Below the pieces are notes generated by a model. The model did not search any database. It was not told the DNA's origin and saw only the letters and a list, made by a program, of their open reading frames with translations. A stretch of 64,000 nucleotides of DNA from an uncultured Acidobacteriota bacterium (lineage in GTDB: Bacteria > Acidobacteriota > UBA6911): contig CAYZTZ010000005.1 in the NCBI GenBank assembly GCA_964481255.1, positions 4,922 to 68,921 of the forward strand, in the 5' to 3' direction. The position numbers and the translations under genes were made by a program. Shown piece by piece: positions 33,976 through 59,887 of this stretch (the first letter of the stretch is position 1; each line of letters opens with the position of its first letter).

Positions 33976-34896
33976 ATGAGCCATTCGGAAGATGGAATCA
34001 TATTCAACATCCAGGGCTATTGCCTCCACGACGGCCCCGGCATTCGCACGACGGTGTTTCTGAAAGGATGCCCTCTGCGCTGCCTTTGGTGCCAGAATCC
34101 GGAATCTCATTCCTTCAGTCCCGAACTTCTCTTTACGGAGGAAAGGTGCACGGCGTGCGGGAAGTGCGTCCAGGCCTGCCCCGAGCATGCAATCCGCCTG
34201 CACGGGAAAGCGTCGCAAACCGACCGAAGGCTCTGCAAAGGCACAGGGTTGTGTGTCGATGCCTGTCCCAACGAAGCCAGAGCCATAATCGGGCGCCGGG
34301 CAACGGCCGACGAGGTTTTCAAAGAGATCGCCGCCGATTCATTGTTCTACCAGGCGTCGGGCGGCGGCGTGACATTGAGCGGAGGAGAGCCTCTGGCGCA
34401 ACCTGAGTTCGCGGCCGGCATTCTAAAGAAATGCCGGGACGCAGGGTTTCACACCGCGCTGGACACTTGCGGACACGCCGACTGGACGGCGGCACGAGAG
34501 GTCCTGCGCTATGTCGACCTTGTGCTCTTTGATTTCAAGCACATGAATCCCGAAATGCATAGGAGACATACAGGGGTAACCAATGAACGGATCCTGCAGA
34601 ACGCGGAAAAGATCCACCATGAGATGTCGATACCGATGCAAGCCCGCGTGACCCTCGTTCCCGGTTTCAACGATTCCCCTGAAAACCTCGAGGCCACCGC
34701 CCGATTCATCGCCGGCACACTCTCGAACGCCGTCCCTGTTCATCTGCTTCCCTACCACCGCCTTGGAGAGGCAAAATGGGAGAGGTTGGGAAGGAAAAAT
34801 GAGACCGCGGCCATCGAGATTCCCGGCGAGCGGCAGTTGATGGAATGCCGCCGGATTTTTGAGTCCTTCGGCCTGACTGTAACGACGGGCGGTTGA
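33976..34896 (+). CDS. Glycyl-radical enzyme activating protein (radical SAM, with two auxiliary ferredoxin-like clusters)
   Basis: HDGPGIRTTVFLKGCPLRCLWCQNPES (Cx3Cx2C), CTACGKCVQACP, CKGTGLCVDACP and GGVTLSGGEPL. Confidence 0.9.
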   Translation: MSHSEDGIIFNIQGYCLHDGPGIRTTVFLKGCPLRCLWCQNPESHSFSPELLFTEERCTACGKCVQACPEHAIRLHGKASQTDRRLCKGTGLCVDACPNEARAIIGRRATADEVFKEIAADSLFYQASGGGVTLSGGEPLAQPEFAAGILKKCRDAGFHTALDTCGHADWTAAREVLRYVDLVLFDFKHMNPEMHRRHTGVTNERILQNAEKIHHEMSIPMQARVTLVPGFNDSPENLEATARFIAGTLSNAVPVHLLPYHRLGEAKWERLGRKNETAAIEIPGERQLMECRRIFESFGLTVTTGG

Positions 34897-34946
34897 TCCG
34901 CAATTCCGGCATTGGGATTCCATGTCGGGAACAGGAGAGGCGTCTT

Positions 34947-40972: not shown

Positions 40973-42808
40973 TCAATAACCCCATAAATCTTTGATGACT
41001 TCCTCAAGACCCAAGCTTGACAATGTGCTTCTATAAGGTTTCCCGGTTTTTGAGTCCCATCCCATAAGTCTATAATAATCATATATCATTGCTTTTATGG
41101 GTACGACCCTTCCCTTGGAACCCCCATCAGGAAGCGGCACCGCCGTATATTTATGCGGAAGGGTATCATCTTCCGGTCTCAGACCGTGTCGAATGTTGAA
41201 TCCCCGGCGCAGGTTAATGACCCTTCGAGCCGTCATCCTCGCTTCCTTTTCGTCAATTTGCAGCCCCGTCGCAGCGGCGAGGGTTTCAACTATCTTCGCC
41301 AACGGAACGCCGATGGTTCCAAAGGCACAGATTCCTAAAGTGTTAATAAAGCATCTCGCCTCCTGACCGCGTATCACAGCTTCTGCTTTCCCCGCGACTG
41401 AAAACCTAGGCAATTCTCCCGTTAGCTCAAGTCGAAGCGGGCCTCCTTCGTGGGCGGGACCGGCGCTTCCCACGGCATACTGCAACGCGTATCCCCAGGC
41501 ACTGCGATGATCATGCATGGGAAGAGGCATTCCTTTGACCTGCACCACAAGATCCTCCGCACCCTGCCCGATATATCGTGCCGCGAACAAAGGGCCCTCC
41601 GCCAAAACCCGGCCGATTCCTTCCCTTTTCGCGGTTCTTTCTATCAACTTCCATGCAACTTCGTAATTGCCAAAGGTTGCTTCCAGTCCCTCCACGTCCG
41701 CAGCCGAAATGAGGCCTTTCTCATAACACTCCATCAGAAGGGCTATCCCATTGCCCATCCCTAATCCATCAAGACCTAATCGATCCGCCAGTTCCGTCAG
41801 TCTAGCGACCACCGTTGGATCCGTGACCCCGATATTGCTTCCCATAGCGCTCATCAACTCGTATTCGGGTGATTCACACTCCCCCTCAAAGGCACCGTTT
41901 TTCAGATTTAGAAGCTTGCCATGACGGATCGTGCAACCAGGGCATGTGATATCCCGCTTGAACATACTTTCGACAACGTATTCACCGGTCAACTTTTCCC
42001 AACCCTTCAGCGTGCCATATCCCCAGTTCTTTATGGGCAGATCCCCCGCTGTATAGCACATTTGAACCAACGCAGCCGTGCCGAACTTACTGAAAGCTTG
42101 AGCCTCTAAATGCTGCATGTTTAACCTGCGCCACTCACGTGCAAGCTTCGCAAACGGACCCGGATGCGCAATGGGCACTGAGCGGTCGCCGCCGATCGCT
42201 ATCGCCTTCAGTCTCTTTGCTCCCATTACAGCCCCAAGCCCACCCCTGCCCGCTACATGGGAGCCATCGTTCACTATGGAGGAAATCATGACCCCATTTT
42301 CACCCGCCGGCCCGATACACAGGCAGCTCGTCCGGCTCTTGCCGGACTCTCGCCTCAAGATTTCCTGCGTTTCCACCGTGTCCCTTCCCCACAGTAACGA
42401 CGCATCAAGCAATTGGGCTTTGCCGTTGTCTATCACCAGGTTCACAGGCTCTTCCGAAGCCCCCTCAACCACGATGGCATCATAACCGGCAAATTTCAGC
42501 ATGCGCGCAAAATTGCCGTTCGAATGTGCATCATATACTGTAAAGCCCGTAACTGGGGATTTTGCCGCAACGGAGACATTACACGAGGCCTGGACCGACG
42601 TACCGGCCAGGGGGCCGGCGGATATCACAAGTTTGTTACCGGGTTCGAGAGCTCCGATACCGGGCGGAACTTCGTCGTAAAGGATTCTTGCCGCTATCCC
42701 ATCTCCCCCGATATATTTTTCAATATAGGAGCCATGCAGTTCTTCATCCTTCAGAGTCCCATCCGTCAGGTTCACACGCAAAAGTTTGCCCATAACACCT
42801 GAATACAT
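40973..42808 (-). CDS. Aldehyde:ferredoxin oxidoreductase family (tungstopterin) enzyme
   Basis: GKLLRVNLTDGTL N-terminus, SPEYELMSAMGSNIGV and LGICAFG blocks. Cluster motif reads CPGCTIRH. Strong RBS AAGGAGG upstream of ATG 42808. Confidence 0.9.
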   Translation of the reverse strand: MYSGVMGKLLRVNLTDGTLKDEELHGSYIEKYIGGDGIAARILYDEVPPGIGALEPGNKLVISAGPLAGTSVQASCNVSVAAKSPVTGFTVYDAHSNGNFARMLKFAGYDAIVVEGASEEPVNLVIDNGKAQLLDASLLWGRDTVETQEILRRESGKSRTSCLCIGPAGENGVMISSIVNDGSHVAGRGGLGAVMGAKRLKAIAIGGDRSVPIAHPGPFAKLAREWRRLNMQHLEAQAFSKFGTAALVQMCYTAGDLPIKNWGYGTLKGWEKLTGEYVVESMFKRDITCPGCTIRHGKLLNLKNGAFEGECESPEYELMSAMGSNIGVTDPTVVARLTELADRLGLDGLGMGNGIALLMECYEKGLISAADVEGLEATFGNYEVAWKLIERTAKREGIGRVLAEGPLFAARYIGQGAEDLVVQVKGMPLPMHDHRSAWGYALQYAVGSAGPAHEGGPLRLELTGELPRFSVAGKAEAVIRGQEARCFINTLGICAFGTIGVPLAKIVETLAAATGLQIDEKEARMTARRVINLRRGFNIRHGLRPEDDTLPHKYTAVPLPDGGSKGRVVPIKAMIYDYYRLMGWDSKTGKPYRSTLSSLGLEEVIKDLWGY

Positions 42809-43360
42809 CGTTGTTTCCTCCTTCATTCTTTCTGACACCGGAATTCCCCTCGGGCATGAAATCCGCCAAGGCCCGCGGACCCAACGGCTTCGTACCCCTC
42901 CACATGATCCTGCCTCTCCATATCACAGTCCTGGCCAAACCCTTGAACCGCCGGACCGAATAGATTCTGAAGCCGCCGGTGCACCGGTAGAGATCTTCTG
43001 TCACCGGAACCTACTTTTCCGGATCTAAAAGGCTGATATCTCAGGCCGGACAACCGCCGCTTCCATCGATTGCGGCGCTGGTCGATTACATTTGGGGCCG
43101 GGTAGCGGCCAATTTGCATTACAGTCAGAGATCCCTGGAAAAAGAGACGCCTCCGAAATGCGTAAAACCCGCGTCGCTGCGGTAAACAAGGACGCTTCTC
43201 GCTGCTTGTCGCATTTTGCCGCAATCGAATCAAAAGTCAGGTATCGGCGAAAACCATAAGGCTATGCGAATGGCATGTCCATACTGCGTTGTTGTCGAAA
43301 TGCGCCGGGATAAAGTCCCGTGAATGGCCGACAGCATATTGCCATCCCGCCATAGCGGCT

Positions 43361-44587
43361 CTAGGAAGTCACTGGACCGAATGCGCCGGCCATAAGATAC
43401 CGATCATATTCGGCCTCTGACATCCCCAAAATCTCAAGACAGATGTATTCATTATGCTCTCCCAAAAGGGGAGCCTCCCGATAAAGCCTCGCGGGAGTCC
43501 TTGACAATCGGGACGGCTGCCCTAAATAGGAGAAACTTCCCAGTTCCCTATGATTTCCTTTCCAGAAACACTCTCTTTCCTGCAGCTGCACATCCCTGCA
43601 AATATCTCTTGCATCCTGCACAACGCCCGCGGCAACTCCTTCCTGCTGCAGCAGAAACATGACATGTTCCGGTTCGAACCGGGATGTCCATTGCTCCACA
43701 AGATGGTTTAGCCTTACTTCATTTTTCTTCCTTGCCGGAAGCGTCGAGAATTCAGGATCTTTTGTCCATTCAGGATCTCCCATGGCTTTACACATGGATT
43801 GCCACTCGGCGTCCGTAAAGACAGTGATTGCGCACCAACGATCCTCCCCTTTGCAGCGAAAAACCCCATGCGGGGCGGCATATTCACAGGAGTTGCCGCT
43901 GGCCTGTGCCTGCGTGCCGCTCGTTGCATAATCAAGCAGAAGCGGGGCTATGAGCTGCAAACCGGCTTCGAATTGAGACACGTCAATCAGCTGGCCTTTG
44001 CCCGTTTTGTCCCTGTGATCGAGGGCGCTTAGGAGGGCGCTGGCTGCAAAGTGAGGGACGCAATAATCCGTATAGGCCACCATCGGGGATATCGGTTCTT
44101 CGTCGGGGAAGCCCACAAGATTGACGATTCCTCCCAACCCGTTAATATGGTGTCCCAGGCCGGGCTGAGTGGCCGAAGGGCCTGTTAATCCCTGATTGGA
44201 GCTTCGAATCACGACAATATCCGGCTTGATTCTGCTCAATTCATCATAGCCCAAGCCCCAGCTTTCCAGCACGCCGGGCCTGTGGCTGTCGGCCACAATA
44301 TCCGCCAGGGCCACCAATTTTATCGCGATCTCCTTCCCCGCCGCATTCTTTAAATCGAGGCTGATGCTGTATTTATTGGCTGCAAGATAGCTGAAGAACC
44401 CGGCCCGGTTTATGTTTGTTACACCATCCTTGAAAGGAGCGGAAGTCCGCAATAAGTCCGGCCTCTCCATGGATTCGACGCAGATCACGGTTGCTCCGTA
44501 ATCGGCCAAGTATTTGAGAGTCAGCGGACCGGCAATCGCCCACCCGAAATCAATCACATGAATTCCGGCAAAGACCTTTGGATCCAA
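43361..44587 (-). CDS. Family III (CaiB/BaiF-type) CoA-transferase
   Basis: GIHVIDFGWAIAGPLTLKYLADYGATVICVE N-terminal Rossmann block, Asp-containing TDYCVP at the catalytic position, C-terminal PLLGEHN. Confidence 0.85.
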   Translation of the reverse strand: MDPKVFAGIHVIDFGWAIAGPLTLKYLADYGATVICVESMERPDLLRTSAPFKDGVTNINRAGFFSYLAANKYSISLDLKNAAGKEIAIKLVALADIVADSHRPGVLESWGLGYDELSRIKPDIVVIRSSNQGLTGPSATQPGLGHHINGLGGIVNLVGFPDEEPISPMVAYTDYCVPHFAASALLSALDHRDKTGKGQLIDVSQFEAGLQLIAPLLLDYATSGTQAQASGNSCEYAAPHGVFRCKGEDRWCAITVFTDAEWQSMCKAMGDPEWTKDPEFSTLPARKKNEVRLNHLVEQWTSRFEPEHVMFLLQQEGVAAGVVQDARDICRDVQLQERECFWKGNHRELGSFSYLGQPSRLSRTPARLYREAPLLGEHNEYICLEILGMSEAEYDRYLMAGAFGPVTS

Positions 44588-44614
44588 GCGAATCCCTTCC
44601 TTTCACCAAAACAT

Positions 44615-45868
44615 CTAGATAGTTCCGGATTGCTGTAAGAGCTCCAGATCTCCTTTTGAAAAGCCGAGCTCCCCTTCATAAATGTCCCGGTTGTGCTCTC
44701 CCGGCAAAGGAGCTTTCCTCAACATCGTGAGCGGCGTTTCCGATAATTTTGCGAATGGGCCGGGATAGGTGATCCGTGCCTGAATTTCCGGATGATCAAC
44801 CTTGACCCAGAAGTCCCTGGCCTTTAATTGTGTGTTTTCAAAAATGTCTCGAGCTGTGGACACCGGGCAAAGCATGATCTTTCTTTCCAGGGCCTGGCTA
44901 TACAATTCAGCCTTTGTGTATCTCAAAAAAAGCTCCGCGATGGGGGCCTCCATTTGATCCTGCATTTCCTGGGTCTGACAGGACATGTCGAACACCGTCC
45001 AATCAAAATTTTCCATAAGCCCCGAAGCTAGACCCTCTTCCTGCAGCCACGCCGCCATGGCTCGATTGGTTTTAAGGCCGAAATCGCCGCCCAAAATATA
45101 AAAAATGACGTATCCATCCTTGCACCGCCATAACAGCTTCTGTTTTGTGTCCGTCCATCGGCCTGTGAGATAGGACCCCACGCGCCTGAGAATTTTATGA
45201 TTTAACTCCCACAGCGGAACTGCATTGGAGAGCTCCCATAGGACACACTCCTGCGCCGATACATCAACAAATTGCCCTTGCCCGGTCTTTTCACGATGGA
45301 AATAGGCGATAAGGCTCGCAGCGGCCGCATGGGCGCTGGCTAACATAAAGGACTGAGGAAAACTGATCCTCACGGGAGGCGCCTCCGGTCTTCCCGTGAT
45401 ATACAACAAGCCGCTCATAGCCATGACCACGAGGTCGGATGCTTTGAAGTTCCTGTAAGGTCCCGTTTGTCCAAACGGACTAATGGAGGTATAAATCATG
45501 CGCGGATTGAGCCCCTGGAGATCGGCGTACCCTAGTCCCAACGCATCCATATGTCCGGGAGGAAACGATTCAATGACAAAGTCGGCCTTGCTTGCCAGAG
45601 TTTTGAAAATTAGCCGTCCATCTCCGGAATCCAGATTTAAAGTAATCCCTCTTTTGCTCGCATTGTACGCGAACCATATAAGGCTTCTTTCCGGATCCGG
45701 GGTGTGACCATAGAAGGGACCGACACGCCTGTCCGGATCGCCTCCGGGCCTTTCGATTTTTATGACATCCGCTCCCAGGTCGGCCAGAATCCTGCCGCAC
45801 AGGTAGCCGTTCCCGTTCGTCAGATCCAGCACCCGCGGCGATCGAACCAGGCATTTCTTCTCTTCCAT
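44615..45868 (-). CDS. Family III CoA-transferase paralog (catalytic Asp position appears to be Ser)
   Basis: RVLDLTNGNGYLCGRILADLGADVIKIERPGGD, C-terminal PLPGEHN. The by-eye catalytic position reads PQSFMLAS. Confidence 0.8.
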   Translation of the reverse strand: MEEKKCLVRSPRVLDLTNGNGYLCGRILADLGADVIKIERPGGDPDRRVGPFYGHTPDPERSLIWFAYNASKRGITLNLDSGDGRLIFKTLASKADFVIESFPPGHMDALGLGYADLQGLNPRMIYTSISPFGQTGPYRNFKASDLVVMAMSGLLYITGRPEAPPVRISFPQSFMLASAHAAAASLIAYFHREKTGQGQFVDVSAQECVLWELSNAVPLWELNHKILRRVGSYLTGRWTDTKQKLLWRCKDGYVIFYILGGDFGLKTNRAMAAWLQEEGLASGLMENFDWTVFDMSCQTQEMQDQMEAPIAELFLRYTKAELYSQALERKIMLCPVSTARDIFENTQLKARDFWVKVDHPEIQARITYPGPFAKLSETPLTMLRKAPLPGEHNRDIYEGELGFSKGDLELLQQSGTI

Positions 45869-45872
45869 CCGC

Positions 45873-47057
45873 TCAATTTCCTTTACGGCCTAATCGTTTA
45901 TCCAGCGGGGAGGCATTATTCCGCCTGGATGGCAGAGCCACAATGGCATAGCCCGGCATTACGTTTTCCTGCCTTTGATTGATCGCAGATCGTTCGATAC
46001 GAACGCAGTAATCTCCATCTGCATCCATGTACTTGTCGGTAACCTTGCCCTTGACCCAAACGACGTCCGACAAATAGACGAACTTGTGGTACTCCGTATA
46101 ACTTCTCTTCAGCCAGCCGTCGTCTCCCATCCAATTCGTGATTAAATGAATACCCCAGCAGTGCCTTTGAACACCCACATCATAGGAATGTGGAAGTCCC
46201 ATTGCCTTTGCCGCCGCCCTGTTATAATGAACGGCAAAAATCGGTTCCAGCGCCGAGGTGTTGGGATCCCGGAAAGCCCAGGCCGGGTGTTTTCGATAGG
46301 ACCGCAAGGCCACGCCATGAGCCTGCAATCTCGGGATAGGAACCCCTCCGCCGATCACATAGGCTATCTCATCCGTGACTCCGAGCGGCCCTTTCACTAC
46401 CGGTTTCAGCTCATCTCCGATTTCAACGTCTTCCCAATACCGCGGCGTGGAACCTCGGACCTCCTCAGAAAGAATCTCCTGCTCAATCTGCCGCAATTGT
46501 TCCTCGGTCCAAGGATGCGGCAATTCAAGGTTGGCATACTTTTTTTTCTCGCGGGCCTTCGCTCTGGCGAAATGTACCACCCACCAATGATACCGGGCGA
46601 TCAGATCTCCGTGCTGGTTCCAATATTGATTTTGAAAATGGTCTATTACGGTCTCCTCAGCGTAGCTGCTTTTCTTTGGCCCGTCAAAGCTCTTGAATAC
46701 GCACTCTGCCGATATTTTATCCCCCATAAAAATCGGTTTCATGAATTCCACGTCGCAGCCGGCGTGAAATCCGCCCAGTCCCCTCCAGCCAAATATCACA
46801 TGAGAAAAACAGGCCCAGACGAACGAGGGGGGGGCGACAATACAGCCATACCGGCTCTTTTTTGCATATTCCGCATTACTCCACAGGGGATTCCAATCTC
46901 CTATTCCTTCGCTGAATTTTAGAATCGCCATTCTGGTCGCATACTCATTGTGCGTGCTTTCGTCCACGCGCAGTTTGAAGCCCAGTTTGGCGCGCATGTC
47001 CTCTATCATGTCTTGAGTGATTGTCGAATCGGGCATCACCACTTTTTTCTCGGGCAT
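45873..47057 (-). CDS. Double hot-dog (MaoC-like) acyl-CoA hydratase/dehydratase
   Basis: 394 aa, two hot-dog-sized halves. The N-terminal half (YATRMAILKFSEGIGDWNPLWSNAEYAKKSRYGCIVAPPSF) resembles the MaoC/FAS1-like dehydratase N-domain. Embedded between CoA-transferase genes with 4- and 49-nt gaps. Confidence 0.7.
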   Translation of the reverse strand: MPEKKVVMPDSTITQDMIEDMRAKLGFKLRVDESTHNEYATRMAILKFSEGIGDWNPLWSNAEYAKKSRYGCIVAPPSFVWACFSHVIFGWRGLGGFHAGCDVEFMKPIFMGDKISAECVFKSFDGPKKSSYAEETVIDHFQNQYWNQHGDLIARYHWWVVHFARAKAREKKKYANLELPHPWTEEQLRQIEQEILSEEVRGSTPRYWEDVEIGDELKPVVKGPLGVTDEIAYVIGGGVPIPRLQAHGVALRSYRKHPAWAFRDPNTSALEPIFAVHYNRAAAKAMGLPHSYDVGVQRHCWGIHLITNWMGDDGWLKRSYTEYHKFVYLSDVVWVKGKVTDKYMDADGDYCVRIERSAINQRQENVMPGYAIVALPSRRNNASPLDKRLGRKGN

Positions 47058-47106
47058 CCGTCACCTCTTTGGCTCGGTCGGACCGTTCCGGCCTTATGCC
47101 GCCGGG

Positions 47107-48465
47107 CTACCCCTCGCCAATTCCAATACCAAAGTGTTTTCTCAGTTCGGTGAGATAGTCCGGATCCATGGACCCTGCCTGTTGTTTTTCCAACAAATCA
47201 AGCCGCGTGGGCCTTCCGGGTGGAAAATCCGGAGTTCTGGAAATGACCTTATCCTTCTCCAGACGCACGAGCTCCTGCTTCGACATGCCCAACAATGAAC
47301 AAAAAACGTATTCGTTGTCCTCTCCGAAATGAGGAGCTCGCGTCAGGGCCAATTCCCTAAATCCTCGGAACTTTGCCGGCATCTGGCTGGGGATGGGCCT
47401 TGGACCGATGGCTTCTCCATGATCGATACACTGAAAGAAGCCTCGCTTCTTGAGGTGAGGATTCAGGTTGATTTCTTTCATGTTGAGCACGGCTCCGGCC
47501 GGGATCCTCAACCTCTGCAGGGTGTTCATTATTTCGAATTTGTCCCGGCGCATGGTCCATTGTTCCATCAGACAATCCAATTCAGGCTGTCGCGCAAGCC
47601 TGCCCTCCCTCGATGCGAACGCCCGGTCCCTTAACGCCTCAGGTTCATGGATCTCCCGGACAAAGCGCTTCCACTGGCCGTCGGTCTCTATAGCAATCGC
47701 CACCCACTCGTCGTCTCCCTTACAGCGATAACAGCCGTGAGGGGCGCATCCCGGATGCCGATTGCCCATGCGCCGGCGCTCGCGCTTATTCAGGATGCAA
47801 TCGAGAACTATGTCGCCCAGGTGGCAAAGAGTGGCTTCTCTTCCGGAAACATCCACGTACTGTCCCTTGCCGGTTATCTTCTGGTGGAATAGTGCGGTGA
47901 CCAGCGCCATGGCGGCATTGGCGCCTGTGACCCAGTCCCCGTAAGCGAAACCGGATAGAAGAGGCGGCTCATCCGGGTTGCCGGTGTTGTGCGTCAAACC
48001 GCTCATCCCCTCCATGCCCGGCACGTACATGTAGTAGTCCTTAAGCGGGCCGTCGTGTCCCAAGCCGCTCACCGAAACCATGATGATTCGAGGATTGATC
48101 TTCTTCAGGCGTTCGTAATTCAATCCCCAATGGGTCATTACCCTGGGCGAATAATTCTCGATGACCGCGTTGCTTATTCTTAAAAGCTGCCGGAAGATAT
48201 CGCGTCCCTTTTCGGTAGCCATATTGAGAGAGATGGCCCGTTTCCCTGCATTGAGGGAGTGAAACAGGCAGCCGCGATTCCAGGGATCGGCCCCCGGGTT
48301 GTTTTCGGGATAGACATTGGCTCGCGTAAATACATCCGGGCGTTGCCATGATTCTATCTTGAGAACCTCCGCTCCCAGTTCCGCCAATATCTTTGTGGCA
48401 ACGGGCCCGGCAAAAACCATGGTCAGATCGATAATTCTTATGCCGTCTAATATCTTGTATGCCAT
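47107..48465 (-). CDS. Family III CoA-transferase
   Basis: IRIIDLTMVFAGPVATKILAELGAEVLKIE, catalytic-position GDWVTG, C-terminal PHFGEDN. Confidence 0.85.
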   Translation of the reverse strand: MAYKILDGIRIIDLTMVFAGPVATKILAELGAEVLKIESWQRPDVFTRANVYPENNPGADPWNRGCLFHSLNAGKRAISLNMATEKGRDIFRQLLRISNAVIENYSPRVMTHWGLNYERLKKINPRIIMVSVSGLGHDGPLKDYYMYVPGMEGMSGLTHNTGNPDEPPLLSGFAYGDWVTGANAAMALVTALFHQKITGKGQYVDVSGREATLCHLGDIVLDCILNKRERRRMGNRHPGCAPHGCYRCKGDDEWVAIAIETDGQWKRFVREIHEPEALRDRAFASREGRLARQPELDCLMEQWTMRRDKFEIMNTLQRLRIPAGAVLNMKEINLNPHLKKRGFFQCIDHGEAIGPRPIPSQMPAKFRGFRELALTRAPHFGEDNEYVFCSLLGMSKQELVRLEKDKVISRTPDFPPGRPTRLDLLEKQQAGSMDPDYLTELRKHFGIGIGEG

Positions 48466-48480
48466 TATCGTTCCGATCGT

Positions 48481-49686
48481 TTATAGGATACCGGCACTCC
48501 GCAATCTCTCGATATCTTTTTGGGTGTACCCCAATCCTCGATAGATCTCACGGTTGTGTTCTCCCAGCAAAGGGGCTCGTCCGGAAAGCCATGGCGTCCT
48601 GCATAGTCTGGCAGGCGGGCCCGGGCTGGTGAATTCACCTAAACGTGGATGACGGATCGTGTCGAAGAACTTCCTGGCTCTCAATTGCGGGTCCTCTAAG
48701 AGTTCATGGACGCTCAAAACGGGAGTAAAAGCGAGCCGCAATTGCTGGGCTTCCGCCGTAATGTCCCATTTGTTGCGACTTATCAGCCACGGAATGACCA
48801 GGGCATCAAATCCTTCAGGATCGGCCATGCGGGTTCTTGGGTCGGTAAAAAACTCGCTGTCCTGTAATTCAGGTTTGTTGATCAGAAAAGGAATATTCGG
48901 CGCCCCTCCGATCCCGGGGGTGAGGCTGATCCAGCCATCCTTGCAGGGAACGCTGTAGCCGACGGGGTAACCGTGGATGGCAAACGGATTGGTCCGTCTG
49001 CTGAATCCCAGGTATGAATATTCCGTAATATGTCCCATGAGGGTGCTGGCGACACACTCCATCATTCCCACATCGATCGAAACGATATCCGGATTATTCG
49101 CTCGGCCCAGAAGCGCCGCCACCGTTGCTATATAGCTCAGCAGCCCCGTCGAGAATTCCGCCTGCACCCCCCCCAGCACGGAAGGTCTTGTTTTGGGTTT
49201 AGTCCCGGGTCTCATCGGATAGATCGCCCCGCCGAGGGCCGATACGGTGAGATTATTCGCGCGATAGCGGCGGTACGGCCCGGTTTTGCCAAAGGCTGAA
49301 ATTGAAGTCACAAGGATGCGGGGATTGATCTTCCGCAGTTTCTTCCTGGATAAACCCAATCTTCGGAGCCCTCCGGGGGCATAGCTTTCCACAAGGATAT
49401 CCGCGGTTTTCAGAATCCGCTTTGCTATTTCAATCCCCCTTTTGCTGTTGAGGTTTAAGGTAATGCTCTTCTTATTGGTGTTCAGATAGTGGAAAGTACC
49501 GCTCTTCTCGAGGTCATACTGATCATTGGGGAATGGTCCTATTTTCCGGGTGATATCCCCTTTGTTCGGTCTTTCAACTTTAATGACTTCGGCGCCGAAA
49601 GAACCGAACAGTTTTGTGCAATAGGGGCCTGCAATCCCCTGAGTCAGGTCCAGTATTCGCACCCCGCTGAATACCCGTTCGCCCAT
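48481..49686 (-). CDS. Family III CoA-transferase paralog (Glu at the catalytic Asp position)
   Basis: VRILDLTQGIAGPYCTKLFGSFGAEVIKVERP, catalytic-position QAEFSTG, C-terminal PLLGEHN. ATG 49686 (MGERVF) is preferred over the 23-aa longer track ORF. Confidence 0.8.
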   Translation of the reverse strand: MGERVFSGVRILDLTQGIAGPYCTKLFGSFGAEVIKVERPNKGDITRKIGPFPNDQYDLEKSGTFHYLNTNKKSITLNLNSKRGIEIAKRILKTADILVESYAPGGLRRLGLSRKKLRKINPRILVTSISAFGKTGPYRRYRANNLTVSALGGAIYPMRPGTKPKTRPSVLGGVQAEFSTGLLSYIATVAALLGRANNPDIVSIDVGMMECVASTLMGHITEYSYLGFSRRTNPFAIHGYPVGYSVPCKDGWISLTPGIGGAPNIPFLINKPELQDSEFFTDPRTRMADPEGFDALVIPWLISRNKWDITAEAQQLRLAFTPVLSVHELLEDPQLRARKFFDTIRHPRLGEFTSPGPPARLCRTPWLSGRAPLLGEHNREIYRGLGYTQKDIERLRSAGIL

Positions 49687-50345
49687 AAAATCACGCCCTT
49701 CTGCCAACGTGCGATGGATGCGTATCCCAAGACGCACACGTCCATGAGGACTCAAAACAAGTTTCCTGCACTTTGCTTGATCTCATGTTGCACACCGTTG
49801 ATATTTGACGATATTATTCCGCCGACAGAATCTGTTTCCAGTTTGCCGGCAATTGGATCCGTTGGCTGACCGGGAGCCCCTGCTGCGATTTCGGCCGGAG
49901 TCGCCGAGAGCGCAATCCAATACGCCCTTCCGCTCCTATTCCCTCCTTGAGCGGGGCAAAACAATATTATCATTGCAGGCAAAGCGTCGGACGCTCCAAT
50001 TCCACAACGGAAGGAGCTTATTGACGGATCGCTAACAGGCAACAGAAATTGCTTTATCTCCACAAAAATGATGCACCTAAACGCAGTTGCACATGAATTT
50101 ATTTGTAACATGGCGAAGCTTGTTTTAAAATGAAAAAAGAAGAACTGACCATCAGGCAAAGCAGGTCTTAGTTCTGGGAACCATTATGTTTATTGCTGCC
50201 AGGTTTCCCTCAAATGGTTGGGCTGTCTTGCCGTCCCCAATAGAAGGATTCGAAATGACAGCCGCGGATGAAGGTCAAAGCAAAACGCCGGAGGAGCGAG
50301 GCTTAAGGAATACTTGGGTTCCATAGAGCGTGGAGGGCGGAACAG

Positions 50346-51398
50346 ATGGCGGAATTTTCCAAGGATGAAGCCAAGGCCTGGGCAAAAAAGAACTTGAAAG
50401 GACTGGAAGCAGTAATTTTCCCGTCCTTTACACCGGATTTGAAAGAACTCGACGAAGAGGGTATTCGATATGATGTCAATCACCTCATTGCCAACGGTTT
50501 TACGTCCGTATTGGCAGCGCCGGAAGTTTGCGGAATGACCTTTGAAGAGCGAAAAAGGCTTGTCGAAATAGTATGCGACGAAGCAAAGGGTAAAATGCAC
50601 ACGTCGGTCGCTGTGATGCAGGATACCGTCGAGGAAGATATCGAGATGCTGCAGCATCTCGAAAAAGTCGGAGGAACTTTCGCCCTGCTCGGCCATCCGG
50701 TACAGTACCATCCCTGGTCGGTCGAGGATATTTTCCGGATGTATAAACACATGTGCGATTCGACAAATATCGCGATAGTGTTTTACGCCGGTCGACTCCA
50801 CACCAGGAAATTTCATCCGAGCTATTTTCCTCCGCAGCTCCTGCCACGTATAGCTGATATCCCTAACGTCGTGGCTATGAAAGTCGGCGGAGGGAGTTCG
50901 ATGGCCATTACGGTGATGTCTTTTCGTCTGTGCGGCGATAAAATCCTGGTCAACGACCCGACGCCTGAGAGGTGGTTTGTTACCGTGCCCCAATACGGTC
51001 AGCAATGGGCAGGCGCCGGCCCTTATTACGGAATGCAAACTCCCGAAAGACCGCGTATGGTCCATATGTTTAATCTGCTGGTGAAGGGTGAAATAGATAA
51101 AGCAATGGATATTTACTGGGAGGCGGCTCCTCCGGCAGAAGGCGGAGAAGGGCCGGCCGACTCCTATTTTCATACGGGCATTGTTACCGCTCTGAGCGAT
51201 AAATATTCACACTGGTGCAACGGGGGCAACGGCGGTACCGTCAGGCAACCTACAGGCCGGCTCCACGACTACCAGAAAGAGAGAATAAGGGCGGGGCTGA
51301 GAGCGCTGGGATTCACTCCTCGCGAACCCGAAGAAGAATTTTACGTCGGCAGGGTTAACTACGCCAAGGGAGCCAGATTGAAAAAATACAGTTCATAG
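50346..51398 (+). CDS. Divergent DHDPS/NAL-family (class I aldolase-like) protein, paralog 1
   Basis: TIM-barrel-sized (350 aa). Lys context IPNVVAMKV matches the DapA Schiff-base lysine strand. The GTTGE loop is replaced by PEVCGMT. RBS GGAGGG upstream. Confidence 0.7.
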   Translation: MAEFSKDEAKAWAKKNLKGLEAVIFPSFTPDLKELDEEGIRYDVNHLIANGFTSVLAAPEVCGMTFEERKRLVEIVCDEAKGKMHTSVAVMQDTVEEDIEMLQHLEKVGGTFALLGHPVQYHPWSVEDIFRMYKHMCDSTNIAIVFYAGRLHTRKFHPSYFPPQLLPRIADIPNVVAMKVGGGSSMAITVMSFRLCGDKILVNDPTPERWFVTVPQYGQQWAGAGPYYGMQTPERPRMVHMFNLLVKGEIDKAMDIYWEAAPPAEGGEGPADSYFHTGIVTALSDKYSHWCNGGNGGTVRQPTGRLHDYQKERIRAGLRALGFTPREPEEEFYVGRVNYAKGARLKKYSS

Positions 51399-51481
51399 CG
51401 GCAGATTGAATGAACGTATACCATATATATATATGCGGGACACCCGCCTCTATCCCGCACTATAAAGGAAGGGAGTTAACA

Positions 51482-52510
51482 ATGGAATTTACGAAATCAG
51501 AGGCCAAACAGTGGGCGAAAGAAAATTATAAGGGACTCGAGGGAGTATTAAGCCCTTCCTTTACGCCGGACCTGAGTCGACTGGACGAAGAAGGAATCCG
51601 ATATGATGTCCGGCATAACATAGACAAGGGGATGTTCAGCTTCCTTTGCCAGACAGAAGTTTGCGCAATGACTATGGAGGAGCGCAAGAGGTTCGTAGAA
51701 ATAGCCTGTGACGAAGCCAAAGGCAAGGTCCTGGTCTCCATGTTCACCGGCATCGATACTATGGAGCAGGATATCGAATTGTTACAGCATTTCGAGAAGG
51801 TCGGGGGAACTCATACCTTGCTTGGCTGGCCGGGAATGTTTTACGCTACGTCGGAAGAAGATATTTACCAGGCAACCAAAAAAGTATGCGATGCGACTAA
51901 TGTCGCCGTAGACCTCTGGCCAAAACCCAAGTTCGATTTCGGCAGATTTCATCCCAGCCATTTTAATCCCGAGCTGGTAGAAAGAATAACCGAAATACCC
52001 AACGTGGTTTCCATAAAAGCCTATATAAGCGACGGACTTGGAAAGTGGGCCGATATTCAACACCGTGTCGGCGATAAAGTTCTGCTACAGTCGGCTGAAG
52101 TAGAAGAGTGGCCTATTACAGTTGCAAAATATAAGCAGCAGTGGGCCGGACCGATAGATTACGTTATTTTCGATGAAACCGCCGATAATCCGCGCATCGT
52201 CAGAATGTTCAACCTGTTCAGGGAAGGCGAATTTTCAAAGGCGATGGAGCTTTACTGGGAACTGGCCCCGATAACGATTGGAGCCCGGGCTGCAATGCTT
52301 CAATCAGGTATGATGGGCGTGAAATACATGCAGTGGTTAACTGGGGGCAACGGCGGAATGTACAGACAGCCGACAATGCCGATATTTCAGCGCCAGAAAG
52401 ACGCAATGAGAGCGGGTCTGAAAGCCGCCGGTATCACCCCGCGGGAGCCCGAGGAAGAGTTCTATGTAGGAAGACTAAATTACGCCAAAGGCGCGAGGCT
52501 AAAGTATTAG
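51482..52510 (+). CDS. Divergent DHDPS/NAL-family protein, paralog 2
   Basis: About half the residues are identical by eye to paralog 1 (SEAKQWAKENYKGLEGV, LDEEGIRYDV, IPNVVSIK, TPREPEEEFYVGRLNYAKGARLK). ATG 51482 has a GGAAGGGAG RBS. Confidence 0.7.
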   Translation: MEFTKSEAKQWAKENYKGLEGVLSPSFTPDLSRLDEEGIRYDVRHNIDKGMFSFLCQTEVCAMTMEERKRFVEIACDEAKGKVLVSMFTGIDTMEQDIELLQHFEKVGGTHTLLGWPGMFYATSEEDIYQATKKVCDATNVAVDLWPKPKFDFGRFHPSHFNPELVERITEIPNVVSIKAYISDGLGKWADIQHRVGDKVLLQSAEVEEWPITVAKYKQQWAGPIDYVIFDETADNPRIVRMFNLFREGEFSKAMELYWELAPITIGARAAMLQSGMMGVKYMQWLTGGNGGMYRQPTMPIFQRQKDAMRAGLKAAGITPREPEEEFYVGRLNYAKGARLKY

Positions 52511-52627
52511 ACTACATTCCCACATTTCCCATAGATACAGCGTATACGTACGGCAATTCTTTTATTCCTGACACCGTATGCTCTGCATGGGAACAGGGAC
52601 GGAATAACGACGAGGAGACGGTCAAAA

Positions 52628-55129
52628 ATGGCGCTTAATTCCGGCGGCAAGTATGCCAAAGAAGTTGGGTCATGGCAGGAGATTTTTAAACCTGTCCGTT
52701 CCGCGCGGGTGGAAAAGGCCAGGGAAAGAGTGCGCAAAGAAGCCGAAATCTGCCTGGAACGCATTCGAGCCGAACTCAAAGCCTGTAACCAGTATAAAGA
52801 CCAGCCCTCCATCATTCGGCGAGCCCGCTTTCTTGAGACTTTCCTGAGGGAGAAAAGCATACTTATCCAGGAGGATGAACTCATTGTAGGCACCGTAGGA
52901 AGTAAGCCTCGCTCCGCTTTTATAACAACGGCGAATATCGCCTCCATCGAACAAGAGCTGGACGATCCCGTCAAGGACTTCTCCACTCGGCCATATGACA
53001 GGATTTTAGTTCATCCTGAGGAGAGAAAAGAATTAAGGGAAGAAATCATTCCGGCGGTTAAAGGCGGGGCCATCTCTCTTTTCGAACATAATTTGAAAAC
53101 TGTCGACCGGGATATTCTCGAACATACCGCTCCCGGAGTCTCATCCTGTCCGCATATACCCATTATCGGCGACGTATCGATGGCAAGAGAGGCCGGCCAC
53201 ATGTTCCTCAACTTTGAAAAGGCCCTTTATAAAGGGCTTCGAGGAATCAAGGATGAGGTCAGGGAGAAGATGGCGGAACTCGACCAGCCCTATCGCGGAT
53301 TTGACCGAAAACAGAGACGAGAGTTTTACGAATCCGTGCTCATCACCCTTGATGCGGCTACGGAATATTTCCAGAAATATGCCGGACGGGCGCGTGAGAT
53401 GGCGGCAAAAGAAGCCGCGCCGAATCGAAAGACGGAACTGGAACGTATCGCCGAGGTATGCGACCGGGTACCGGAAAATCCCGCTCGGGATTGGTGGGAA
53501 GCTCTACAGTCCATTTGGTTCCTGTTCACTCTGAGCTGGATGGAACACGCCACTTTTGCAGTACATTTTCTCGGCCGAATCGACCAGATTCTGTATCCCT
53601 TCTACAAGAAAACCGTGGAAGATGAGAAGAAAATGACCCGGGAAGAAGCCCTGGAGCTTCTGGAGTGTTTCCTGGTGAAATTCAACGAACCGGCCTGGGC
53701 GCTCAACTACGAGTGGTCGCAATGGGCAACCGGCCAGGGACTTTCCCAGACAATGGTCATCGGCGGACAGACCAGAGAGGGCAAAGATGCCTGCAACGAG
53801 GTGACCATGCTCGTGCTGGAAGCCATGGAGCAATTGCGTCTGAATCAGCCGGAATTCGCCATGAGGATATGGGAAGGGACCCCCGATAGATATCTTAAAA
53901 AGGCAACCCAGCTTATCCGCCTCGGGCTCGGCTATCCGAAATTCATCGGCGACCGGAAAGGAATTCAGATGGCAGCCAGGGGCTATCCGGACCTGGCCAT
54001 CGAGGACTGGCGCCAGTTCGCTGTTGCCGGATGTTCGGAGATAGGCCTGCCTTATATCACTATGGATAACGGCTATGAAGCCATCGCGCTGGCCTCCAAG
54101 TGGATAGAGCTGGTCTTGAGCAACGGCAAGTGCGCGGTATGCGGCAAGCAGATCGGACTTGAAACTGGCGATCCCAGGAAATTTAAAACCATGGAACAGG
54201 TGAAAGACGCCTACCGCAAACAGGTATTCTACTGGGGCGAGTATATGGCAAAAGCCGAGAGGATTTTCAAGGAAGCCCAGAGCGAATGGTATCCTGCTCC
54301 ATTCTGCTCGGCCCTTGCCGAGGGACCACTCGACAGGGGGCGAGATATTACCCGGGGCGGCGCCTGGTACACCGTGTACGGTCTTTTGCTGGCCAGCCTC
54401 GCTGACGCGGCGGATTCTCTGGGAGTAATAGACAAGCTTATCTACTGTGATAAAAAGATCACCTGGGATCAGTTGATTGAAGCGGTGAACGCCAACTGGG
54501 AAGGTTATGAAAACTTAAGACAGCTATGCGTCAACGGTGTCCCGAAATACGGGAATGACGACGATTACGCCGACGGTTGGGCCATCTGGGTAGCCGATGT
54601 CTGGGCCGACCTGATAGACTGGCTCAATACCCGAAAAGACCTTATGCCGAAGTGGGGAGGCAGATATCTGGCAGGAGGCCTGGTAGCAATAGCCAGTACC
54701 CAGTTCGGAGAATCGGTCGGCGCCACACCCAACGGGCGTAAACATCCCCAGCCGGTGGCCGATACCTGCTCTCCTGTACAGGGTGTCGACCGGAACGGTC
54801 CCAGCGCCGTCGTCAAGTCATTCAGTAAATTGCCTACTCACCGATGGGCGCTCTGCAGTCTTATAAACCTCCGGTTAAATCCGAATCTGTTTACATCCGA
54901 TGCTGACCTTGAGAGGTTTGCAGCTTTTATTCGAGCATGTGAAGAGTTAGGTTTGTACCATTTTCAGTTCAATATAATTTCTGCGGAACTGCTGCGTCAT
55001 GCAATGAAAGAACCCGAAAAACACCGGGATCTGCTGGTCCGGGTGGCCAGCTATGTCGCTTATTTTGTTGAGTTGAGTCCGAACCAGCAGATGGACATCA
55101 TCCATAGAACCGAGCACCAGGGCTGGTAA
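52628..55129 (+). CDS. Glycyl-radical-enzyme homolog (PFL2-like clade) whose radical-site Gly codon reads Ser
   Basis: 833 aa. Thiyl loop FAVAGCSEIG (Cys codon 54032-54034; the C-x-E arrangement is kept), YGNDDDYAD block, C-terminal RVASYVAYF where GREs have RVxG(Y/F). AGC at 55049-55051. Confidence 0.85.
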   Translation: MALNSGGKYAKEVGSWQEIFKPVRSARVEKARERVRKEAEICLERIRAELKACNQYKDQPSIIRRARFLETFLREKSILIQEDELIVGTVGSKPRSAFITTANIASIEQELDDPVKDFSTRPYDRILVHPEERKELREEIIPAVKGGAISLFEHNLKTVDRDILEHTAPGVSSCPHIPIIGDVSMAREAGHMFLNFEKALYKGLRGIKDEVREKMAELDQPYRGFDRKQRREFYESVLITLDAATEYFQKYAGRAREMAAKEAAPNRKTELERIAEVCDRVPENPARDWWEALQSIWFLFTLSWMEHATFAVHFLGRIDQILYPFYKKTVEDEKKMTREEALELLECFLVKFNEPAWALNYEWSQWATGQGLSQTMVIGGQTREGKDACNEVTMLVLEAMEQLRLNQPEFAMRIWEGTPDRYLKKATQLIRLGLGYPKFIGDRKGIQMAARGYPDLAIEDWRQFAVAGCSEIGLPYITMDNGYEAIALASKWIELVLSNGKCAVCGKQIGLETGDPRKFKTMEQVKDAYRKQVFYWGEYMAKAERIFKEAQSEWYPAPFCSALAEGPLDRGRDITRGGAWYTVYGLLLASLADAADSLGVIDKLIYCDKKITWDQLIEAVNANWEGYENLRQLCVNGVPKYGNDDDYADGWAIWVADVWADLIDWLNTRKDLMPKWGGRYLAGGLVAIASTQFGESVGATPNGRKHPQPVADTCSPVQGVDRNGPSAVVKSFSKLPTHRWALCSLINLRLNPNLFTSDADLERFAAFIRACEELGLYHFQFNIISAELLRHAMKEPEKHRDLLVRVASYVAYFVELSPNQQMDIIHRTEHQGW

Positions 55130-55162
55130 CAGACCGAAAGCGTACCGGGTAGAGGCATCGGC

Positions 55163-56092
55163 TTGACGAATCCATCGGCTTCCTCTGCAAAGAAACGATC
55201 TGTCCTTAGCATTGCCCGGATGACAGTTCATAACGGACCCGGAATACGAACCTTGATACTTCTGAAAGGCTGTCCCTTACGCTGCATCTGGTGTTCCACG
55301 CCTGAATCCTGGGAGGAGTCCCCGGAAATCGCCTTCCACCCGGATAAGTGTATCCTATGTAACGACTGTCTTCCGGTTTGTCCGAAGAATGCGATAACAA
55401 CCGGCGATAAAGCGGTGGTCCTAGACAGGGAGTTATGCGATAAATGCGGAAGGTGTGCCGATGTATGCCATACGGAAGCCCTGAGACTCCTGGGACGGCA
55501 ATATACAGCAGACGAATTGGTCTACGAGGTGAAGAAGGACGAAATTATCTATAAACATTCCGGAGGCGGCGTAACCGTTTCGGGAGGAGAGCCCCTGCTT
55601 GAACCGGAGTTTGCCGCGGAATTGCTCCGCGCTCTTAAACAGAACGGAATGAATACCGGAGCGGATACCTGCGGTTTTGTCCCCCGGAAAAATATCGAGG
55701 CCGTCCTCCCCTATGTCGACTTTTTTCTCTGGGATATCAAGCACATGGATGAGGATACCCACCGCAAACTAACCGGAGTATCCAACCGTCTCATCCTGGA
55801 CAACCTGCTTTTTGTCTCGGGTAATAATATACCCGTCTATCTGAGAATACCGGTGATACCCGGCTGCAATGATTCGGAGGAAAACCTGAGGGCCGTCTGT
55901 GATTTCGCCGCAGACCTGCCCTCGCTGGTTGAGATAAACATCCTGCCGTTGCACCACCTGGGCAAGGCAAGATATGTCGCTCTGGGCCTCGAATACCCCA
56001 TAGACGATATTCCTCTAGTTAAGGATGGTGTTCTCACGGAGATGCAACGCCTGGTGGAATCATTCGGCTTAAAGTGCAGCATAATCGGCTAA
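55163..56092 (+). CDS. Glycyl-radical enzyme activating protein
   Basis: HNGPGIRTLILLKGCPLRCIWCSTPES (Cx3Cx2C), CILCNDCLPVCP, CDKCGRCADVCH, GGVTVSGGEPL. TTG start at 55163 is uncertain. Confidence 0.9.
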   Translation: MTNPSASSAKKRSVLSIARMTVHNGPGIRTLILLKGCPLRCIWCSTPESWEESPEIAFHPDKCILCNDCLPVCPKNAITTGDKAVVLDRELCDKCGRCADVCHTEALRLLGRQYTADELVYEVKKDEIIYKHSGGGVTVSGGEPLLEPEFAAELLRALKQNGMNTGADTCGFVPRKNIEAVLPYVDFFLWDIKHMDEDTHRKLTGVSNRLILDNLLFVSGNNIPVYLRIPVIPGCNDSEENLRAVCDFAADLPSLVEINILPLHHLGKARYVALGLEYPIDDIPLVKDGVLTEMQRLVESFGLKCSIIG

Positions 56093-59670: not shown

Positions 59671-59887
59671 CCCTAAAAACGAGAAAAACCAACATCATAG
59701 AGAATGAGCCTGCCGAGATCATCCAGGTCGGGCGAGAGGCTCTCGACAGCACGCCTGATTTTTGAAGATCTGAGATGTGCCGATATTCGAAGAGCTGGAT
59801 CTTGGGAGGATGATAAAGACACTCCGGGACAGTGGAAGACCAGGCACTGTATGAAAGGAATATATCCATCCATGGGAGGAACCACAG

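Follow-up and report, generated by a model that had tools for sequence, protein, structure and literature searches.

Why should four genes of family III coenzyme A (CoA)-transferases, two of them without the catalytic aspartate of the family, stand in one operon around a putative hydratase gene? The question is raised by a five-gene block on the minus strand of a 64,000-nucleotide stretch of DNA (hereafter the window) from an uncultured Acidobacteriota bacterium (GTDB lineage Bacteria; Acidobacteriota; UBA6911), taken from contig CAYZTZ010000005.1 of assembly GCA_964481255.1, positions 4,922 to 68,921. The block, also called the cassette below, was read as two BbsEF-type two-subunit family III CoA-transferases (E1F1 and E2F2) placed around a double-hotdog MaoC-like (de)hydratase (HYD), a reading to which a probability of roughly two in three is given. 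Each pair would consist of a non-canonical E subunit and a catalytic F subunit.

Two transferase pairs and their catalytic column

The gene order, obtained by inspection of the open reading frames (ORFs), is E1, F1, HYD, E2, F2, and the intergenic gaps along it are 15, 49, 4 and 27 nt. An earlier note, made from the letters of the window and a list of its ORFs, had described five genes with gaps of 4-49 nt, and both this layout and its end coordinate for E1, 49686, were right. The open frame of E1 can be followed upstream as far as a TTG at 49755. The alignment with orthologues and natural fusions begins only at the ATG at 49686 (residue 24 of the ORF), which is preceded by a GAAGGG motif and is the likely start of the gene. 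The Pfam family PF02515 covers all four transferases over their full length (profile positions 1-366, E = 3.5e-77 to 1e-100). Because 4 of the 19 PF02515 genes of the genome fall inside these 6.3 kb, and because the five-gene block recurs in many unrelated assemblies, the clustering of the four transferase genes is far from chance. Promoter and terminator scans of the region 42.7-50.4 kb gave chance-level results.

The division into two kinds of subunit was seen in comparisons with solved structures. Chain A of PDB entry 9fn0 is the top solved relative of E1 and E2, and chain B that of F1 and F2, the opposite chain scoring far lower in each case; the assignment of these chains to BbsE and BbsF rests on gene order and on the present alignment, no paper on 9fn0 having been found in the literature. 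In a tree of 80 sequences generated with IQ-TREE, E1, E2 and 9fn0_A fell on one side (support 98), and F1, F2 and 9fn0_B on the opposite side together with the homodimeric enzymes, the E side and the F side being separated with a support of 94-98. In this tree the second pair lies nearer to the Bbs chains than the first. The branching of the E side is mirrored on the F side, and both pairs would therefore descend from the duplication of an already heteromeric ancestor.

Some 70 unique related loci, drawn from genomes and metagenomes and cited below by L-numbers, were used to count the adjacencies of transferase genes. Close adjacencies were E1 followed by F1 (22 cases) and E2 followed by F2 (33 cases), with no case of any other pairing; the E genes always had their cognate F gene directly downstream, and the spacer between E1 and F1 was almost constant at about 15 nt. 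Natural in-frame fusions of E1 with F1 were found in two Acidobacteriota metagenome-assembled genomes (MAGs), at L009:7386-9998 and L011:7383-10001, each about 870 residues long with a linker of about 25 residues. Among the wider relatives of E1, 134 of the nearest 150 representatives of 50%-identity clusters are two-domain fusions, and Asp is present in the C-domain of 129 of these 134. The same E1-F1 fusion, with the E1 part truncated, is seen at L010. Ratios of dN/dS were 0.07-0.13 for all five genes when these were compared with four relatives. Values of about 0.1 show no decay of the Asp-less genes, and the possibility that E1 or E2 is a pseudogene was rejected on these grounds. Chain-specific PDB matches, the two tree sides, invariant adjacency, fusions and purifying selection together strongly support the suggestion of the earlier note that the block encodes two heteromeric enzymes of the BbsEF kind. 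What was directly observed is the structure of the genes, the pattern of catalytic residues, the homology by subunit type, the co-inheritance, the fusion and the selection.

The catalytic column was defined as that of Asp169 of YfdW (E. coli) in a MAFFT alignment of the window proteins, their orthologues and solved structures. The reference sequences of this alignment were both 9fn0 chains, YfdW, a second Frc, SUGCT and 4ed9, rebuilt from HMMER alignments; MCR, CaiB and Mct were met only as weaker PDB matches. The column was surveyed in 133 unique sequences. F1 carries Asp177 (codon 47935-47937), which is aligned with YfdW Asp169 and conserved in 33 of 33 orthologues, and F2 carries Asp174 (codon 44066-44068; 32 of 32). 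The corresponding residue of E1 is Glu (codon 49156-49158), with Glu in 26 and Asp in 1 of 27 orthologues, and that of E2 is Phe174 (codon 45347-45349), the position being aromatic in all 34 orthologues (Phe 29, Tyr 4, Trp 1). The two chains of 9fn0 have Tyr (A) and Asp (B) in this column.

These residues had been called by eye in the earlier note as Asp in the 47107 (F1) and 43361 (F2) genes, Glu in the 48481 gene (E1) and Ser in the 44615 gene (E2). In the formal alignment with Frc-type references Asp is found only in F1 and F2, so the pattern of two Asp-bearing and two Asp-less genes stood, as did three of the four calls, and the Ser call for E2 proved to be off by one column. Ser173 of E2 lies one column before the Asp column and varies among S, V, A and T in the orthologues, and the HMMER pairwise alignment of E2 with 9fn0_B sets Ser opposite Asp by means of an insertion; the assignment of Phe is thus uncertain by one column, the residue being non-acidic in either alignment. 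Fifty-three columns are conserved in the Asp-bearing members of the family, and of these BbsF retains 47, F1 40, F2 39, E2 36, BbsE 33 and E1 30. Judged from the alignment, this order is the pattern expected of catalytic versus auxiliary subunits.

The Glu of E1 is probably not a nucleophile, since its column varies widely in the wider relatives and Gln is frequent there. Among the same 150 representatives the residues were Q 26, E 26, D 19, H 11, S 11, Y 11, A 10 and others in the N-domains of fusions, and Q 10, E 2, L 2, P 1 and D 1 in single-domain relatives, a variability by which Glu was ruled out as a family-wide catalytic feature. If Glu nevertheless worked as a nucleophile in E1, then E1F1 would have two different active sites, one with Asp and one with Glu, for the two halves of a CoA relay. 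The acidic residue in 27 of 27 orthologues and the retention in E1 of the AGP and ERP motifs of the CoA-binding domain would agree with such an enzyme, which is nonetheless considered quite unlikely: the frequent Gln argues for a structural or hydrogen-bonding role, E1 ranks lowest in the number of family-conserved columns and no longer has the TGxGQ motif, and variants of Frc at Asp169, D169E among them, are reportedly essentially inactive. It is highly improbable that the four genes encode independent homodimeric enzymes, of which the Asp-less ones would have drifted to a racemase or epimerase (MCR-like) or to a binding protein. Family III does include non-transferase members such as alpha-methylacyl-CoA racemase, and these appear as weak PDB matches, but MCR is a distant match (1e-17 to 1e-24) that keeps its own Asp/His pair, and the constant succession of E and cognate F, the E1-F1 fusions and the congruent E and F subtrees all speak for pairs. 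Nothing was found that points to the racemase or intramolecular-transferase role once considered for the Asp-less genes, which always travel with an Asp-bearing partner.

Orthology of the four transferases to Frc, YfdE, CaiB, Mct, or the succinate-glutarate or succinyl-CoA:mesaconate transferases was rejected on NCBIfam equivalog scores, the best of which were 32-239 bits for all four proteins against cut-offs of 413-750. Orthology of each gene to a characterised homomeric enzyme of an unrelated pathway was an outcome that, according to the earlier note, would have spoken against its suggestion; no transferase of the window comes near an equivalog cut-off.

Four further pairs were found in the genome, in each of which a gene with the Asp is combined with one that reads W, A, C or T in the catalytic column (Table 1). 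The C1 pair is fused in one open frame of 943 aa. In the C22 set an E-type gene, an OYE-like reductase gene and an F-type gene are interleaved, with two aldehyde:ferredoxin oxidoreductase (AOR) genes upstream and, downstream, a gene that probably belongs to the PrpD family, to go by its N-terminus as inspected by eye.

The middle gene and the surroundings of the cassette

HYD, the anchor gene of the cassette, occurs once in the genome. Its homologues number more than 2500, of which the best 120 are all at least 68% identical and labelled only 'acyl dehydratase' or 'MaoC family'. The Pfam matches are confined to the N-terminal hotdog, and the C-terminal half of the protein has no Pfam match. 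An AlphaFold2 model was obtained with a pTM of 0.72 and a pLDDT of 64, residues 224-298 being of very low confidence. A Foldseek search with this model retrieved the double-hotdog dehydratases 5i7n and 4v12, the mesaconyl-CoA hydratases 8hgn (MeaC) and 4e3e (Mch), the hydratase 2 of MFE-2 and the itaconyl-CoA hydratase PaIch, at identities of 12-15%; the fold alignments with 5i7n, 4v12, 8hgn and 4e3e span about 390 columns with TM scores of 0.43-0.61. According to the model, two hotdog domains are present in one chain, the confidence for the C-terminal one being moderate to low. The likeness to mesaconyl-/itaconyl-CoA hydratases is at the level of the fold only, as no NCBIfam or PDB sequence match to them was obtained, and a PDB profile search with the HYD alignment matched only single-hotdog proteins at the N-terminus.

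The N-terminal motif of HYD, GDWNPLW, has an invariant Trp59 where canonical hydratase 2 (GDxNPxH) has His, and resembles the sequence GDRNPIY of the His-less ChsH1. In the C-terminal half D264, E271 and H277 are invariant and atypically spaced, and are the probable catalytic set of the putative hydratase. The most invariant stretch of the protein, residues 224-298 (G223-P-L, D264, E271, H277-Y), matches no family and may represent a new kind of lid or active-site element.

Arrangements around the anchor gene were counted in the 30 loci that are visible for at least 2.9 kb on both sides of HYD. An E/F pair is directly adjacent to HYD in 22 of them: both pairs in 8, E2F2 only (HYD-E2-F2) in 10 and E1F1 only (E1-F1-HYD) in 4. 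A pair is located elsewhere in the locus in 3 loci, and no transferase lies within 10 kb of HYD in the remaining 5.

Table 1. Coordinates of the cassette, of neighbouring features in the window and of further transferase pairs in the same genome.
Feature	Position	Strand	Evidence
E1, BbsE-type non-canonical subunit, pair 1	48481-49686	-	PF02515 3.5e-77; best PDB match 9fn0_A 6.5e-47
F1, BbsF-type catalytic subunit, pair 1	47107-48465	-	PF02515 1.3e-98; best PDB match 9fn0_B 1.9e-58
HYD, double-hotdog MaoC-like (de)hydratase (predicted)	45873-47057	-	PF13452 and PF01575, residues 41-154 only
E2, BbsE-type non-catalytic subunit, pair 2	44615-45868	-	PF02515 4.1e-82; best PDB match 9fn0_A 3.5e-72
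F2, BbsF-type catalytic subunit, pair 2	43361-44587	-	PF02515 1e-100; best PDB match 9fn0_B 2e-81
Conserved 5' leader of the cassette	49687-49906	-	blastn and tblastx, 74-96% identity to L003, L006-L009, L011, L032, L040
AOR, downstream of F2	40973-42838	-	PF01314, PF02730
Divergent operon	50346-56092	+	Pfam and NCBIfam
Two DHDPS-like genes	50346-51398, 51410-52510	+	Pfam and NCBIfam
SRE, serine-radical homologue of glycyl radical enzymes (RVASY)	52628-55129	+	Pfam and NCBIfam
SRE activase	55163-56092	+	Pfam and NCBIfam
Further pairs, own genome	C61:4256-6830; C17:25105-27661; C22:24264-32238; C1:23456-25753		PF02515, adjacent genes

In the window the cassette is flanked by an AOR gene and by a divergent operon that includes a homologue of the glycyl radical enzymes (GREs), here called SRE. 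An AOR gene follows F2 in at least nine loci (L013, L022, L042, L045, L049, L053, L054, L058 and L068). The SRE of the window and every GRE homologue found adjoining HYD have the motif RVASY, with Ser at the position of the radical Gly (L001, L013, L015, L039, L045, L049, L050, L052, L053, L059, L060, L061 and L068), and because of this motif they are assigned, from sequence, to the serine-radical enzymes, the class described by Fu et al. 2024 (PMC11528403). A second GRE of the window (34893-37337) and its orthologues in L009 and L011 have RVAGY. The SRE of the window is best matched by eliminases (CutC, 1e-131), and its matches to benzylsuccinate synthase (4pkc, 3e-79) and MasD (2e-89) are limited to the C-terminal two thirds; a fumarate-adding enzyme next to the cassette was ruled out, as SRE is far closer to eliminases such as CutC.

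All genes are co-directional at two loci in which SRE and the cassette occur together. L060 reads SRE, activase, AOR (with 62% identity to the AOR of the window), an unrelated transposase-like ORF, E1, F1, HYD, a metallo-beta-lactamase-fold gene and E2, at which the contig ends; L061 reads SRE, activase, E1, F1, HYD, the metallo-beta-lactamase-fold gene again, E2 and F2. The recurrent neighbours comprise AOR, two DHDPS-like genes, several UGSC-family genes, MarR, the GRE homologue with its activase, and SDR, OYE-like and PrpD-like proteins; no acyl-CoA dehydrogenase, thiolase, crotonase or CitE-type/CoA-ester lyase was identified among them. The MarR-family regulator stands beside the cassette in at least 12 loci (L001 (9180-9704), L006-L011, L013-L015, L024, L028 and L042), and no homologue of it was found in the genome of the window by tblastn at 1e-3.

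Some loci have an additional gene between HYD and the next transferase gene, namely the metallo-beta-lactamase-fold gene (HxHxDH) of L060:11217-11963 and L061:11317-12063 and a PF04199 cyclase/formamidase-like gene at L004:11211-12062, and in the window itself genes for an SMP-30/lactonase-like protein and for an amidohydrolase lie at 58432-60967. Such extra hydrolase genes hint at a lactone or amide precursor. Searches of the genome with tblastn gave at least 12 paralogues of AOR and over a dozen of the UGSC family. They also gave a second DHDPS-like pair (C15:14363-16556), which adjoins UGSC genes and another CoA-transferase gene. From its gene content, the organism appears to be rich in such anaerobic acid/aldehyde metabolism.

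Proposed working and competing readings

On the model of BbsEF and Frc, the E and F subunits of each pair would interlock in a heteromer whose only catalytic site is on F; there the Asp would form a mixed anhydride with the acyl group and then a thioester intermediate. E would most likely be an obligatory interlocking partner, which completes the single active site as the complementary half of the ring. The carboxylic acid would be supplied by the neighbouring enzymes, the likeliest source being AOR oxidising an aldehyde downstream of SRE and the DHDPS-like pair, and the best guess for this acid is a dicarboxylate or a hydroxy/enoic acid. A donor thioester would then pass its CoA to the acid without ATP cost, the hydratase would add water to the CoA ester or remove it, and the second transferase (or the same one, at loci with a single pair) would hand the CoA to the next substrate molecule or to succinate. 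The whole would constitute a CaiB/CaiD-like CoA-recycling (de)hydration module in which no ligase, dehydrogenase or lyase is needed, and the lack of dehydrogenase, thiolase and CoA-ester lyase genes among the neighbours fits a module of transfer plus (de)hydration. As many loci have one pair, this is presumably enough for both the loading and the unloading of CoA; the presence of two would then mean specialisation, for example for different donors, regio-isomers or stereo-isomers. The physical E-F heteromers, the direction of the reaction, the CoA donor and the substrate are the parts of this account that we infer. It is a tentative extension, held at clearly less than even odds, that the cassette and AOR form the conserved downstream half of an anaerobic catabolic pathway begun by SRE, in which an aldehyde would be oxidised by AOR to the acid and the acid converted to CoA esters.

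Several observations weigh against two BbsEF-type pairs working with a hydratase in this manner. The subunits of the window are only 33-37% identical to the Bbs chains, and the AlphaFold2 model of the natural E1-F1 fusion, computed from a two-sequence alignment, had a pLDDT of 28 and is uninformative on the heteromer. Many loci carry one pair only, as compared with two here. The five census loci with no transferase within 10 kb indicate that the hydratase can work with other partners. No canonical hydratase-2 Asp/His motif was recognised in HYD, its most conserved stretch is the one modelled at very low confidence, and the term 'hydratase' is itself a family-level assignment. Finally, the AORs linked to the cassette are different paralogues, with 33-35% as against 62% identity to the AOR of the window.

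Two other pathways were weighed for the same genes. In one of them, which the earlier note had raised as well, the cassette would interconvert CoA esters of C4/C5-dicarboxylates along the routes of itaconate, mesaconate, citramalate or malate, one pair activating the acid and the other re-positioning or releasing the CoA after hydration. The models for this are SmtAB/Mch/Mct/Meh of the Chloroflexus 3-hydroxypropionate bi-cycle and Ict/Ich, in which family III transferases likewise accompany double-hotdog MaoC hydratases acting on C4/C5-dicarboxyl-CoA; SmtAB, compared here by description, has two subunits like the pairs of the window. Mesaconyl-CoA hydratases (8hgn, 4e3e) and PaIch are among the Foldseek matches of HYD, the nearest characterised transferases (BbsEF and SUGCT) use dicarboxylates, some of the related loci share MmgE/PrpD-family genes and a DctP binding protein of the TRAP type, and the cassette is common in Chloroflexota. 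This interconversion is nevertheless thought rather unlikely, because the NCBIfam equivalogs for succinyl-CoA:mesaconate CoA-transferase and mesaconyl-CoA isomerase gave 32-192 bits against cut-offs of 700-725, the identity of HYD to the hydratase structures is so low, and the CitE/Mcl-type lyase partner is absent among the recurrent neighbours. The other pathway, the processing of a fumarate-addition product (an aryl- or alkyl-succinate) in a true Bbs-like sequence, is suggested by BbsEF as the closest solved relative of all four subunits and by the radical enzyme of the GRE superfamily next door, and had appeared in the earlier note as succinate-adduct processing. That proposal was not supported: the radical enzyme is eliminase-like and has Ser in place of the radical Gly, no genes of the BbsG, BbsH, BbsCD or BbsAB type (dehydrogenase, crotonase or thiolase among them) recur nearby, the hydratase is of MaoC type while BbsH is of crotonase type, and identity to BbsE and BbsF is modest. 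A Bbs-like sequence is accordingly given very little credence.

The preferred reading, two heteromeric transferases around a (de)hydratase, has its closest counterpart in BbsEF (PDB 9fn0, 9fol and 9fun), which is also made of two paralogous family III subunits, with the E gene before the F gene and with one Asp-less chain (Tyr in 9fn0_A; Phe, Tyr or Trp in E2) and one Asp-bearing chain; the subunits of the window match their own chain type best and fall on its side of the tree. The window cassette differs from BbsEF, beyond the limited identity, by the lack of bss/bbs pathway genes at the locus, by a MaoC-type hydratase as partner instead of BbsG or BbsH, by two pairs in one operon and by the Glu of E1. 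Because the radical enzyme is eliminase-like and the recurrent neighbours are not those of Bbs, the pairs are judged to be relatives of BbsEF in design and not its orthologues. The fused two-domain family III transferases (about 800-870 aa), of which the type III enzyme DddD is a named example, also join a degenerate N-half to an Asp-bearing C-half in the order E then F, whereas the halves in the window are separate genes about 15 and 27 nt apart.

By analogy, the cassette resembles the CaiB/CaiD (carnitine), AcuN/AcuK (acrylate) and FldA/FldBC systems, which combine a family III transferase with a (de)hydratase and lack a ligase, dehydrogenase, thiolase or lyase. In these systems water is added or removed at the thioester, and the CoA is passed from product to substrate. 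They differ in that their transferases are homodimers with Asp in each subunit and their hydratases are of the crotonase fold or are radical [4Fe-4S] enzymes, not double hotdogs; the NCBIfam CaiB family scored 84-114 bits on the transferases of the window against a cut-off of 413.

To our knowledge, split family III CoA-transferases with one active site have been characterised in a single system, BbsEF of anaerobic toluene degradation. The design that unites an Asp-less and an Asp-bearing part, split or fused, is very common, as is seen from the fused representatives counted above and from the six pairs of this genome. As an example of this design the cassette is clearly delimited, strongly conserved and mobile by horizontal transfer; it is tied to a new hydratase family and is abundant in uncultured anaerobes of sediments and peat (MAGs of Dehalococcoidia, Acidobacteriota and Desulfobacterota). 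No description of the cassette, of its hydratase family or of its serine-radical link was found in the literature searched. The enzymology would be unsurprising, its catalytic logic being that of BbsEF plus CaiB/CaiD. The frequent link to SRE, AOR and UGSC-family (seleno)proteins suggests an unrecognised pathway of anaerobic carbon turnover, for which the cassette proteins are concrete expression targets in finding the substrate. According to Fu et al. 2024 (PMC11528403), the genomic contexts of aminoacyl-radical enzymes are too varied for the reaction to be predicted; if the cassette does serve a pathway begun by SRE, its neighbourhood would offer, for the first time, a practical clue to what such an enzyme acts on. 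A highly expressed cluster of the benzene degrader BzS1, with two CoA-transferases and a dehydratase-domain protein (PMC13416013), may be analogous.

Distribution and mobility

The closest relatives of the cassette are in Acidobacteriota MAGs (83-89% identity), and in the subunit trees the Acidobacteriota copies nest within sequences of Chloroflexota. Among the other genomes searched, HYD turned up in 6 of 29 from the same genus, and a further 31 from elsewhere in its family and class gave no case; the cassette is thus accessory. In the window the GC content drops at roughly 38 kb, from about 0.62 to about 0.52 for the part that follows (38000-64000). Because of this drop, the patchy occurrence of HYD and the nesting of the Acidobacteriota copies, the region from about 38000 to 64000 is probably a horizontally acquired island.

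Similarity to the nearest relatives ends close to the cassette on both sides. Upstream of E1 only about 220 nt, the leader listed in Table 1, still match, and of these the part from about 49815 to 49906 (about 90 nt) is what remains of the 3' end of a UGSC-family gene which, in the relatives, stands ahead of E1. After F2 only about 45 nt (43314-43360) are conserved. From the alignments, the point near 49906 at which homology stops looks like a rearrangement breakpoint by which a co-directional locus was turned into the divergent one seen here.

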